Below, piece after piece: positions 6,148 to 8,736 of a stretch of 13,503 nt of DNA; the first letter of the stretch is position 1; the number at the start of each line of letters is the position of its first letter. A program made the position numbers and the translations under genes. The notes below the pieces were generated by a model. That model was not told the DNA's origin. It made no database searches and was given only the letters and a program-made list of their open reading frames with translations. The stretch is from Promethearchaeati archaeon (GTDB taxonomy: Archaea; Asgardarchaeota; Heimdallarchaeia; JABLTI01): assembly GCA_013166835.1 (NCBI GenBank), contig JABLTI010000107.1, forward strand, positions 1 through 13,503. The letters are read 5' to 3'.

Positions 6148-8736
6148 TCAGAATAAAAGAATTTCATCTTCTGCTTCCAAAACACCTTTTTCTCGTTCTA
6201 TGTTTCTAGCAATCCTTCGTTTTATATATCTAACAAAAAATGTAACACTAACAACAAGTAATCCAAGAATAAAAGCCAAGGAGACTGACAGCCTGATGAT
6301 TCGTTTCTTAGCAGGAAAATCTTTTGGATCAAAGGGATCGGTATTATATAAAACCTCCAAACCATCCTCTGCTCCATCTCCATCTGTATCGGAATTTCGA
6401 GGATCAGTACCAAGGAGGTATTCTTCTAAATTTGTTAAATGATCCGCATCCGCGTCGTATTCACCATTAGGTATTAGGGGGTCCAAATTAAACTCATGTT
6501 CATAGCCATCAGGCATACCGTCGAAGTCGGTATCAGGATTATTCGGATCTGTTGAGCTAGAATAAATTTCTCTCATCCAGTAGTATTCTTCGAAATTGGT
6601 TAAATCATCTTGATCTGGATCTTCATCTCGATCTGAAGGATCTAGTGGATTTAAATTATACACAATTTCAAAATAATCATCTATTTCATCCCCATCTGTG
6701 TCTGCATCGTAAGGATTTGTTCCCCAAATATCAGTCTCATCAAAATCAGTAATTCCATCGTTGTCGCTATCAAAAGCAAAAATAACTATTCCATCGTGAT
6801 ATGCACCTGTAACAAGAAATTGATTATATGCTTGTAAGCCATAAATATCATACCTTAGATTTTCACCAACTAAAATGGGATTAAATATATCTGATACATT
6901 TATAATGTAAATTCCTCTTGATGTATCAGCGATGAATACAATATTACCTGATTTTTCTATATTAAGCGCTGAAGTACCAATTACATCTAAATGACTTATG
7001 AACTCAATATTTGTTCGATTATAACTATATATTTCTAGTCCTGGCAATCTTGATGTAGTATAAAGGTATCCATTTTCGAGAATCATATCATATGTTCCAA
7101 GTCCAGTATTCTGATTATCAATTTCAATTATATTACTGATATCAGTAATATTCAGTAAAGTTAATCCATCTTTTTCTGAAGCTGCAATTAATACATCATT
7201 GTCTAAATATAAATCAAAAACACCTGGATATTCATATGTAAAATTATATCCTCCAGCTACAGAAATCATATTTAAATTTGTTATATTCAAAACAACTATA
7301 GTTCTATTTAATGCCCCAAGAAAAACCATATTTTGACCAATGGCTGTTGTTTGTACATCGGAACCATCAGAATATGAATTAATTTTAGAAGGATTTGTTG
7401 GATCAGAGATATCTAAGAAATAAACTCCCAATTCAAAAACTGATAAAATAGCAAGATTATTATGAATTGTTACATCAGAAGTTTGAATTGAAGGTTCAGT
7501 ATATTGTCCTATCTTTTTGGGTTTCTTTGGATTAGATATATTGAATATTTCTAGTCCTGCTGGACCATTTACAACAAAAGCTAGATCATTTTCTATGACT
7601 ATTTTTTTAGCTACACCATAATCAAAAAATTGAGAATATAATTGTACATCTCGTGGATTAATTGTATTAAGTAGTTTAATTCCTTTATCAAAATCAGCTA
7701 TTAGTGTTAAGCCGTCTTTACTAGTTACATCATAACATTCACCATCAGATAAGTACAAATCTAAAACAATTGGTGAAGCAGGATTAGAAACATCAAGTAA
7801 AGCTAAACCTAGATCAGAACAACAAAAAGCTATATTATTTTCTACTATTACATCTCTTATACTTCCAAATCCATTATATTCTCCAATTTTAGTTGGATTC
7901 TGAACATTAGTAAAATTAATTATTTCCAATCCACTATTACCATTAGCTAAAAAAGCTATTTTATCGTCATTAATTTCTGAAGCAAATACACCTGATGCAG
8001 TTCCAGTTGAATCATTCCAAGAACTAATATACGTGGGATTTGAATAAATAGTTAAATCTATAATTTCCAAACCCACATCTGCTCCAGATAAACAAATTAA
8101 TTTGTTTAAAACGCTAATCCCAGTATGAAAAAAACCACTTTCCCATGAACTAATATGTAAGGGATTATATGGATTACTAATATCAAAGATAAAAAAACCA
8201 TTAGCTTGTGTTAAAATATGCAGAAGATTGAAACGCATATCAACTTCTATTATGTAACCATCTAAATCATATTGATCGATTCTTTCGATTTCCCTAGGAC
8301 GATAGGGATCTGAAATATCTATAATTGATATATAGTTAACAACAGAAACAATTGCTTGATTGTTTCTTATATATACCTCTTCAGCTTTACCAGCTGTTTT
8401 ATAATTGCTAATTTTTTCAGGTTTCAAAGGATTTGAAATATTCAATATTTCTAGTCCTTCAAAACCATTAGCTAGAAAAGCCAAATCTCCTTTTGTTGCT
8501 ACCGCTAGTGCTTTTCCTTCTGTACCATCATCATCAAATCTTGAGTGTTCAACTAAGCTAATAGTTTCAGCTGTTGGATTTAGTTTTATATTTAAATTAT
8601 TATGTTCTGATTTAGACATAGAAGTTTTTTCAGTAACTGAATTGTTCACAAAATTTTGAGGGAATAGTATAATCAGCATAATAATGATTAACACAGAGTA
8701 AAGTCTCTCCTTATTATGCATTTCATTAAACCTCAC
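6148..8736 (-). CDS. Type I membrane surface protein: signal/anchor, 14 LVIVD repeats, six DxDxD (TSP3-like) Ca-binding repeats, TM helix and short cytoplasmic tail
   Basis: N-terminal hydrophobic [14 protein letters not shown]; repeated G(L/I)EI(L/I)(N/D)ISNP..P units; [58 protein letters not shown] followed by RYIKRR. Start may be ATG 8721, which has GAGGT upstream. Confidence 0.9.
6313..6771 (-). repeat. Six DxDxD(G)-type calcium-binding repeats
   Basis: DxDxD-x-x-x-(D/N)-x-x-E...(T/L)(D/N)P pattern repeated six times. Confidence 0.8.
6775..8540 (-). repeat. LVIVD repeat array, 14 units (likely two 7-bladed propellers)
   Basis: Counted 14 units of ~42-45 aa. Units 1 and 8 are strikingly alike ([26 protein letters not shown] vs [26 protein letters not shown]). 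Confidence 0.75.

Follow-up and report, generated by a model that had tools for sequence, protein, structure and literature searches.

A surface protein of one family of Heimdallarchaeia ends in a presumably cytoplasmic peptide that is kept strongly conserved up to its last residue by selection on the protein, and we put at about one half the probability that this end is a lineage-specific, C-terminus-anchored putative docking peptide, exposed to and bound by a partner in the cytoplasm. The gene studied lies in a stretch of 13,503 nucleotides, called here the window. In the model that we favour, its product is a cell-surface protein peculiar to one family of the class, combining an LVIVD propeller, thrombospondin-type-3 (TSP3) repeats, one membrane helix and a cytoplasmic tail. 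Two parts of the tail are under selection, a basic amphipathic juxtamembrane helix and, past a variable linker, an acidic run with an [IVT]-L-[LIVM]-F end. The ending would serve as a short linear motif for docking, read along with the free C-terminus: its hydrophobic Leu and Phe side chains would enter a pocket of the partner, with the acidic run facing a basic rim. Docking may in this way couple an adhesin or receptor on the outside to something within the cell. Features are listed in Table 1.

Table 1. Features of the LVIVD/TSP3 gene and of its downstream neighbour (positions in the window; residues counted from the GTG of the 862-residue frame).
Feature	Positions	Strand	Description
Likely CDS of the LVIVD/TSP3 surface protein	6148..8721	-	ATG start at 8721; 857 residues
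N-terminal signal or signal-anchor segment (predicted)	8647..8721	-	residues 6-30; basic start, then a hydrophobic run
LVIVD beta-propeller repeat ectodomain	6772..8568	-	residues 57-655; all-beta
Acidic thrombospondin-type-3-like repeats	6322..6771	-	residues 656-805
Single C-terminal transmembrane (TM) helix	6232..6291	-	residues 816-835; 20 hydrophobic residues
Juxtamembrane basic block	6190..6222	-	residues 839-849; K-[KR]-R-[IV]-x-R-N-x-E-R-[ED]; amphipathic extension of the TM helix
Terminal peptide	6151..6171	-	E-D-E-I-L-L-F-COOH; across the family, acidic residues lead into [DE]-x-[IVT]-L-[LIVM]-F, and the stop always comes right after Phe
Downstream co-directional gene, multi-pass membrane protein	3611..5973	-	800-830 residues in relatives; split here into 4354-5973 and 3611-4264

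The mechanical open reading frame extends over 6148-8736 of the reverse strand (862 residues, GTG start at 8736), and its residue numbers are used throughout. Met 6, encoded by the ATG at 8721, occupies an invariant column of the alignment of 14 orthologues and matches the start Met in 13 of them, and the CDS is therefore likely to begin there. Fourteen full-length orthologues were found in databases (42-69% identity), and 8 came from genomes. All of them have the same kind of N-terminal segment, for which AF2 models a helix at residues 9-23. The ectodomain is a true member of the LVIVD-repeat and bacterial TSP3-repeat families, both matches lying above the curated cut-offs: Pfam PF08309 (LVIVD) matched three stretches with an E value of 6.6e-26 (89.8 bits, cut-off 20.2), and PF18884 (TSP3_bac) scored 29.5 bits with a cut-off of 25. 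The remaining Pfam result for the whole protein was a sub-threshold match to DUF4083. The original description of LVIVD repeats concerned surface proteins of archaea and bacteria (PMC2447325).

In the AF2 model, strands run all along residues 60-656 of the ectodomain, whose length is enough for a tandem propeller. Foldseek searches with the protein model returned generic tandem WD40/DDB1-type propellers (TM about 0.25), and sortilin was absent among the matches listed. The TSP3-like repeats, which presumably bind calcium, make up the best-conserved long region of the protein (pairwise identity 0.71), with invariant Asp-rich columns. Similarity to the TSP3-bearing adhesion proteins CglD and MtsD was weak and restricted to this region (29.1 bits for a cut-off of 400 and 23.2 bits for one of 800, NCBIfam). 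The TM helix has a pairwise identity of 0.47, its hydrophobicity being maintained, and is modelled as one continuous helix over 809-852. The AF2 model is moderate overall (mean pLDDT 68.1, input alignment of 14 sequences). We infer a topology with the C-terminus inside the cell.

The tail comprises the 27 residues that follow the TM helix (836-862; 6151-6231, reverse strand). A tail of about this length ending EDEILLF had been reported in the first-pass annotation, and the sequence confirms it: on the reverse strand, the codons of 6151-6171 are GAA GAT GAA ATT CTT TTA TTC, and a TGA stop occupies 6148-6150. In the basic block, R841, R844, N845 and R848 are invariant in the 9 genomic orthologues, and R844, N845, E847, R848 and E849 in the 14 database orthologues; the hydrophobic moment of the juxtamembrane part reaches 0.93. 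The modelled helix ends at 852 and pLDDT falls below 50 for 848-862, as expected of a flexible peptide, which weakly suggests that the end is exposed. If helical, the terminal 11-mer would have a low hydrophobic moment of 0.28 (0.25-0.28 over the terminal segment), and it would therefore make a poor membrane-surface helix. Such a tail is unusual in its genome, where short, mainly basic tails predominate among the 84 large C-terminally anchored ORFs.

The proposal that the tail end be compared among orthologues was followed, and the end turned out not to be variable. All 25 distinct orthologues terminate in [IVT]L[LIVM]F-COOH, with the stop directly after Phe and none longer or shorter, and 24 of them in [DE]x[IVT]L[LIVM]F; the 14 database orthologues, at 42-69% identity, all read IL[LV]F. 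Leu(-2) and the C-terminal Phe are invariant among the 25, and position -3 is I, V or T. The last 7 residues have a pairwise identity of 0.84, whereas the linker (850-855) has 0.41, the TM segment 0.47 and the propeller 0.50, and the terminal 7-mer ranks 23rd among 856 windows of the protein. Between the most distant groups, the identity of the last 7 residues is 0.76 versus 0.39.

Selection on the tail end operates at the level of the protein. In 9 genomes, Leu(-2) is encoded by CTT, CTC, TTA, TTG or CTA and the terminal Phe by both of its codons, and pairwise differences over the last 3 codons amount to 61 synonymous versus 20 non-synonymous. This synonymous variation at conserved residues rules out an RNA- or DNA-level cause for the conservation. 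As a control for chance, 4435 six-frame ORFs of at least 80 residues were taken from the genome: 3 end in DxxLLx and 18 in [DE]xxxL[LIVM]x. A single motif fit is thus at chance level in this genome, and the ending stands above chance because it is conserved among orthologues.

The gene was found in 9 of 11 further genomes from its family and in none of 49 genomes from the rest of the class, which suggests an invention of this lineage and not an inheritance from the ancestor. A tail profile matched only the LVIVD/TSP3 gene in the genome, and neither there nor among 1.84 billion representative proteins was the tail found outside the LVIVD/TSP3 orthologue group. It was also absent from 105 other LVIVD proteins retrieved, which have other C-terminal domains or short basic anchors. 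A whole-protein alignment search of related loci led to 79 loci of unrelated TSP3 proteins, with the patterns in the TSP3 repeats and the tail in none, and the tail profile gave only generic TM and juxtamembrane matches among solved structures (E at least 0.19). Confinement of the tail to a single orthologue group suits a dedicated partner better than a general signal.

Acidic C-terminal docking tails with hydrophobic ends are known elsewhere, namely the tip of bacterial SSB and the peptide of the archaeal and eukaryotic ribosomal stalk protein. They are probably the closest analogy to the way in which the archaeal tail works, as far as mechanism and not family membership is concerned. Common to them is a flexible acidic stretch ending in Leu/Phe-type residues at or near the C-terminus, conserved far beyond the linker; the ribosomal stalk protein of this very genome has a Glu run, then a Leu/Phe-rich end. 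SSB and the stalk protein, however, are soluble hubs with many partners, whereas the archaeal tail belongs to a membrane protein and differs in sequence. A second comparison is with C-terminal hydrophobic ligands, such as those of PDZ-type domains, the common readers of hydrophobic C-termini, and the ER-export motifs read by COPII Sec24. These also combine a hydrophobic C-terminal residue with another at -2 and depend on the free end for recognition, but neither a PDZ_6 domain (same search positive in 14/14 control genomes) nor a Sec23/24 trunk domain (search without positive control) was found in the genome.

The missing PDZ_6 domain weighs against docking, as does one family member (G010) in which the gene has been cleanly lost and all neighbours kept; no neighbour therefore depends on the LVIVD/TSP3 gene. 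Moreover, an end so hydrophobic and so near the membrane could dip into the bilayer or pack on its own TM helix.

The multi-pass membrane protein gene adjoins the LVIVD/TSP3 gene, in the same direction, in 8/8 orthologous loci examined; its split in the window corresponds to 43 nt missing relative to a related locus (L001). Its product belongs to no Pfam family, and an ESM Atlas search gave no usable match. Synteny was given no weight in judging possible partners, since relatives of the same genus or family keep the entire 13-kb region collinear and adjacency therefore singles out no neighbour. An ORF antisense to the end of the gene (6137-6442, forward strand) was set aside as a shadow of the real gene: none of the ORFs in the 8 related loci matched it at E ≤ 1e-8. 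Contigs of one metatranscriptome run included a 151-nt piece identical to 6534-6684, another of 151 nt identical to 6739-6889, and a third piece that falls in the neighbouring gene. This is a weak hint that the LVIVD/TSP3 gene is transcribed, the share of words being 0.08, DNA carry-over being possible and the tail lying outside the pieces.

That the tail works with no separate partner appears unlikely to us. The basic helix and the hydrophobic end would then act within the protein or the membrane, through TM tilt, an interface, dimer or trimer formation, or clustering. The continuous AF2 helix over 809-852, the strongly amphipathic juxtamembrane part and the last four residues, all hydrophobic, are in line with such a role, and restriction to one family fits self-association equally well. 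Roles of this kind, however, usually tolerate conservative changes and length shifts, whereas the stop position, Leu and Phe are fixed in 25/25 orthologues. Furthermore, the acidic run would presumably be repelled by an anionic membrane surface, the terminal segment is poorly amphipathic, and the TM segment, on which any oligomer interface would lie, is one of the most weakly conserved regions of the protein.

Non-polar C-termini act as protease recognition tags in bacteria, and an ending that is exposed in the AF2 model and fixed at the very C-terminus could similarly be a turnover or quality-control tag by which a cytoplasmic protease or unfoldase sets the level of the surface protein. We consider this improbable: nothing points to a protease, no PDZ_6-type reader of C-termini was found in the genome, and a degron leaves the conserved acidic run and juxtamembrane block unexplained.

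Another protein encoded in the window, 3 kb away, has a similar C-terminal ending. This folliculin-like longin-DENN protein (1895-3133) ends in a conserved [DE]-[VI]-L-F-COOH in 33 of 35 full-length homologues, and endings of this kind occur in only 2 of 3201 gene-like ORFs of the genome, this one and the LVIVD/TSP3 protein. The likeness is a hint toward a quite improbable reading, in which the tail would be the cargo tag of an Asgard-specific traffic or signalling module, of an origin separate from AP/GGA signals and read by one of the organism's many longin, roadblock, DENN or small-GTPase proteins. The two endings might then bind a single reader in competition; alternatively, the receptor tail might displace the C-terminus of the folliculin-like protein. 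If true, this would be a first cargo-to-regulator link in an archaeon.

The first-pass annotation had gone further and seen in the tail an acidic dileucine signal of the eukaryotic kind, as a pre-eukaryotic sorting or adaptor-binding motif. Under this reading, adaptors resembling AP or GGA, or archaeal precursors of these, would bind the tail and sort the protein into vesicles. The likeness on which it was built is real for this protein: its own tail fits both DxxLL, bound by the VHS domain of GGA, and the AP signal [DE]xxxL[LI], one residue from the C-terminus. As in these signals, an acidic run precedes a Leu and a second aliphatic residue near the C-terminus, and, like sortilin and the mannose-6-phosphate receptors with which the signals are associated, the protein has a short single-pass tail and a propeller ectodomain. 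The conserved tail end and a host among the Heimdall-type Asgard archaea also speak for this reading, and the longin fold found in the folliculin-like protein of the locus is also that of the AP sigma subunit. Among orthologues, however, DxxLLx-COOH is present in 12/25, the others having Glu, or L-I, L-V or L-M, and [DE]xxxL[LI]x-COOH in 15/25, with Gln at -4 in 5/25 and L, I, V or M at the position of the second Leu. The family thus conserves Leu(-2), Phe and an aliphatic residue at -3, not Asp or Leu-Leu. The eukaryote-type reading is unsupported because the positions that define the motifs are not conserved, and Leu(-2) with the terminal Phe belongs to neither motif.

Other results run against this reading as well. 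Enrichment of dileucines, which had been suggested as a check, was not observed among C-terminally anchored ORFs: 3 of 127 tails have the motif, compared to a mean of 2.6 in shuffles, and a count at least as high arose in 236 of 500 shuffles. Sorting signals normally serve many cargoes, whereas this tail is on no second protein, and the gene was found in a single family of the class. No match to VHS (PF00790) was found at E up to 0.01 in the genome, which is 84.75% complete (0/14 prokaryotic controls matched, no positive control), and none to AP sigma (PF01217, Clat_adaptor_s) or the mu-homology domain (PF00928, Adap_comp_sub) in the same 84.75%-complete genome, both searches being without positive control. 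The best match to Adaptin_N (PF01602) had 21.3 bits for a cut-off of 37; such matches are sub-threshold HEAT matches, and the model also matches Bacillus subtilis. Nor does the resemblance to sortilin hold at family level, the propeller being LVIVD (PF08309) and not a Vps10 domain: Vps10 receptors have a ten-bladed propeller and a Cys-rich module, whereas the Pfam matches of the archaeal protein are LVIVD, TSP3_bac and the sub-threshold DUF4083. We see no sign of descent shared with eukaryotic dileucine signals, and we regard the adaptor reading as very improbable. What survives of it is the more general idea of a partner-binding motif, which as a generic docking peptide is our best explanation; a eukaryotic acidic dileucine signal or its forerunner is not supported.

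There is likewise very little chance that the end of the protein is an archaeosortase/exosortase-type sorting or processing domain, with an anchor that is cleaved and replaced or a dedicated export route: a surface protein with motif, TM helix and basic residues in that order at its C-terminus would suit it, but no curated C-terminal sorting-domain model matched (NCBIfam, E up to 0.1), a 27-residue tail with an acidic and hydrophobic end takes the place of the few basic residues that typically follow the helix in such signals, and signals that are common to many substrates per genome would here occur once.

A putative docking peptide of this kind bears on a wider question. Asgard genomes encode many homologues of eukaryotic trafficking regulators, and we know of no membrane cargo or cargo signal for them; a full-text search of the literature found no paper treating dileucine, cytoplasmic-tail or sorting-motif signals of Asgard archaea. 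The present case shows that an Asgard protein may match a short motif of eukaryotes without this being evidence for common descent: conservation falls on other positions than in eukaryotes, no reader was found in the 84.75%-complete genome, and the protein belongs to a single family of the class. The tail itself is a short, strongly selected peptide of a surface protein and, made as a synthetic peptide, could serve as a bait for whatever underlies the membrane of these cells.

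The surface protein whose tail is at issue, hereafter the LVIVD protein, is encoded on the minus strand (see table), and its tail ends as the first-pass annotation had described it: the residues E-D-E-I-L-L-F, followed directly by the stop, were found codon for codon after the transmembrane helix. The mechanical ORF starts at a GTG. Since Met6 (ATG at 8721) is an invariant column, in which 13 orthologues have their start Met, the likely CDS is 6148-8721. Two repeat families passed their Pfam cut-offs: LVIVD (PF08309, 89.8 bits, cut-off 20.2; E 6.6e-26) and bacterial TSP3 (PF18884, 29.5 bits, cut-off 25). 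In an AlphaFold2 model (14-sequence alignment, mean pLDDT 68.1), a helix at residues 9-23 was followed by beta strands all through 60-656, short helices in the acidic repeats (660-800) and a single long helix at 809-852, pLDDT falling below 50 over 848-862. Among the matches listed, Foldseek against the PDB returned only generic tandem propellers of WD40/DDB1 types, with a TM score of about 0.25. As the protein has an N-terminal signal segment and only one helix near its C-terminus, the tail is predicted to lie in the cytoplasm.

Coordinates of the LVIVD gene, its C-terminal elements and the neighbouring genes
Feature	Nucleotides	Strand	Residues	Basis or remark
Receiver-domain gene (stand-alone response regulator)	1524-1892	+		PF00072, E 6.4e-21
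Folliculin-like longin-DENN gene	1895-3133	-		Pfam Folliculin N-terminal domain, E 7.8e-7
Membrane protein gene, split	4354-5973 and 3611-4264; break near 4430	-		ORFs of 539 and 217 aa
LVIVD gene, mechanical ORF	6148-8736	-		862 aa from GTG
Pro/Asp-rich stalk		-	within the last 62, N-terminal to the hydrophobic helix	sequence
Hydrophobic helix, 20 residues	6232-6291	-	816-835	sequence
Tail [27 protein letters not shown]	6151-6231	-	836-862	sequence
Codons of E-D-E-I-L-L-F	6171-6151; stop at 6148-6150	-		sequence

A single dileucine-type match is within chance for this genome: six-frame translation of its 3.56 Mb yields 4435 ORFs of 80 aa or more, of which 3 ended in DxxLLx and 18 in [DE]xxxL[LIVM]x. 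What matters is conservation, which the first-pass annotation had named among its checks. A search of 5.8 billion proteins with the LVIVD protein gave 251 matches. Among the 120 listed were the window's own protein (P0002) and the full-length orthologues P0003-P0016 (P0009 partial), at 42-69% identity; all 14 of these orthologues ended in IL[LV]F, and the tail was found in none of the 105 other LVIVD proteins listed. More divergent orthologues were gained from genome searches and a profile search. Endings were counted on 27 pooled rows (P0001, P0003-P0016, P0126, P0128-P0131 and seven genomic translations), of which 2 were duplicates, leaving 25 distinct orthologues. P0002, the copy at the related locus L001, whose ending is the same as the window's, and the 61-aa fragments P0125 (EILLF) and P0127 (EVLLF) were excluded. 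The ending was indeed kept: all 25 closed in [IVT]-L-[LIVM]-F, 24 of them in [DE]-x-[IVT]-L-[LIVM]-F, and none carried a residue beyond the terminal Phe.

Mean pairwise identity was 0.84 over the last 7 residues, compared to 0.41 in the linker (850-855), 0.65 in the juxtamembrane block, 0.47 in the TM segment, 0.50 in the propeller and 0.71 in the TSP3 region, and the terminal 7-mer ranked 23rd among 856 windows. The juxtamembrane stretch forms a second conserved block, K-[KR]-R-[IV]-x-R-N-x-E-R-[ED], with invariant Arg, Asn and Arg positions and a helical hydrophobic moment of up to 0.93. Selection on the tail end acts at the protein level, because over nine genomes the invariant Leu was encoded by CTT, CTC, TTA, TTG or CTA and the Phe by TTC or TTT, and pairwise differences in the last three codons were synonymous in 61 cases and non-synonymous in 20. 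Judged from these alignments, the tail end is a real element under selection.

What this element does is best accounted for by a putative docking peptide, read together with its carboxylate, a reading to which we give a probability of about 0.5. It is suggested by the conservation pattern, the flexible acidic-hydrophobic end and the restriction to a single orthologue group. A flexible acidic stretch closes in fixed hydrophobic residues zero residues from the free C-terminus; it comes after a poorly conserved linker, belongs to a protein whose ectodomain is large, and is private to that group, as would be expected of a dedicated docking peptide. Two acidic C-terminal tips, that of bacterial SSB and that of the ribosomal stalk protein, are the nearest working analogies to the LVIVD-protein tail. 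In the window's genome, the stalk protein itself closes with a run of Glu and then a stretch rich in Leu and Phe. Among 84 large C-terminally anchored ORFs of this genome, most tails were short and mainly basic; the LVIVD-protein tail is out of the ordinary there. As to possible readers, PDZ_6 (PF17820) was not found at E ≤0.001 in the window's genome, 84.75% complete, by a search that was positive in 14 of 14 control genomes, four archaea included; Sec23_trunk was not found there either, by a search run without a positive control. A role of the tail end inside the membrane or in self-association is a doubtful alternative, and its use as a turnover tag is less probable still. A prokaryotic C-terminal sorting domain is very improbable, no NCBIfam model of such a domain having matched at E ≤0.1.

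Equally improbable is a eukaryote-type signal, the first-pass reading of the tail as an acidic dileucine sorting signal or its forerunner. This eukaryote-style interpretation is unsupported on several grounds. The positions that define the motifs are not those kept by selection. DxxLLx-COOH fitted 12 of the 25 orthologues and [DE]xxxL[LI]x-COOH 15; Gln took the place of the acidic residue at the fourth position ahead of the Leu in 5 of the 25, the second "Leu" was L, I, V or M, and the residue preceding the aliphatic stretch was Arg or Lys in some. Only Leu(-2) and the C-terminal Phe were invariant, and the Phe lies outside both motifs. Nor is the tail end a shared signal. When profiles of the tail (31 columns) and of TM plus tail (60 columns) were run on the window's genome (15,908 stop-to-stop ORFs), they matched the LVIVD gene alone; in 80 loci with 9,105 ORFs between them, they matched nothing but the orthologue. 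Against 1.84 billion representative proteins, the TM-plus-tail profile gave 10 matches at E ≤0.001, nine of them orthologues or fragments and one a repeat protein aligned over the hydrophobic part only. The genome-wide enrichment of dileucine motifs was not seen either: among 127 tails of 8-60 residues, from ORFs with at most 2 hydrophobic segments, [DE]xxxL[LI] occurred in 3 (shuffle mean 2.6; count reached in 236 of 500 shuffles) and DxxLL in 1 (shuffle mean 0.4). VHS, AP sigma and mu-homology domains were not found in the 84.75% complete genome by searches without a positive control, and for Adaptin_N nothing but HEAT matches below threshold was obtained (21.3 bits, cut-off 37), with a model that also matches Bacillus subtilis. 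The likeness to sortilin holds for architecture and not for family, the propeller being LVIVD rather than Vps10 (Pfam, Foldseek). In full-text searches, no paper was found that deals with sorting motifs in Asgard membrane proteins or with conservation of their cytoplasmic tails, and among the papers listed none joined Asgard, adaptor protein complex and sorting motif; "dileucine" occurred in Asgard full text in a reference list only, and no title on Asgard cytoplasmic tails was on topic.

The LVIVD gene is probably young, which also speaks against the eukaryote-type reading: within its family it was found in 9 of the 11 other genomes, compared to none of 49 from six other families of the class (E ≤1e-50, 15 candidates scored per genome). 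In the same-genus genome G010 it is cleanly absent, with about 280 nt between the membrane-protein gene and CitG (locus L100, G010:C7, 7562-7843). As it is kept at the same place in G011, from a different genus of the family, this absence suggests that the gene was lost in one lineage.

The next gene downstream, co-oriented with the LVIVD gene, codes for a multi-pass membrane protein, 800-830 aa long in 8 of 8 orthologous loci examined. The gene is split in the window, where 43 nt of L001 are missing and the frame is shifted, either as a real pseudogene or by assembly error. The protein had no Pfam family and no match in an Atlas search. Its N-terminus, cytoplasmic and the second conserved cytoplasmic end of the locus, is the nearly invariant acidic MSEEDYYIDIL (5860-5973, minus strand, and orthologues in L001 and L094-L099), followed by a low-complexity Pro/Gln/Tyr-rich stretch that in some relatives contains runs of poly-Pro. 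A paralogue of the membrane protein, distant at 23-25% identity and about 790-870 aa long, occurred in most of 12 family genomes searched, and was not seen in the window's genome (G000) or G001; beside it, in L101 (G009:C52, 5934-8534) and L102 (G006:C11, 6135-8513), there was no ORF with the LVIVD-protein size or tail ending.

The folliculin-like protein has an ending that resembles the tail ending: of 35 full-length homologues, 33 close in [DE]-[VIL]-[LF]-F and 2 in EILT. The folliculin-like and LVIVD proteins alone, among 3201 gene-like ORFs of the genome, ended in [DE][ILVM]L[ILVM]?F, a count that overstates the surprise since the pattern was set after both endings were seen. In the model (longin plus DENN fold, pLDDT 76.7), closest to C9orf72/SMCR8, FLCN/FNIP2 and DENND1B (Foldseek E 2e-8 to 2e-6), a short helix, predicted with moderate confidence, makes up the C-terminus and may just belong to the fold. 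Full-length orthologues of at least 50% identity were found only in the genus of the window (10 of 10 genomes), with weaker paralogues across the class; folliculin-like longin-DENN proteins have already been reported for Heimdallarchaea (bioRxiv 10.1101/2020.10.19.343400). Beyond the split membrane protein gene lie an acylphosphatase gene, the folliculin-like gene and, abutting the latter, the receiver-domain gene, which is kept in 4 related loci. CitG (triphosphoribosyl-dephospho-CoA synthase), citrate lyase ligase and an aconitase-type small subunit flank the locus (8805-10890 and 1-522); the citrate-lyase accessory genes adjoin phosphoglycerate kinase and a HEAT-repeat protein. Close relatives share the gene order of the entire region, so adjacency alone is little informative.

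What emerges is a lineage-specific peptide, so far uncharacterised, at the C-terminus of an archaeal surface protein. Its interest is modest: the peptide offers a handle for finding internal partners of Asgard surface proteins.
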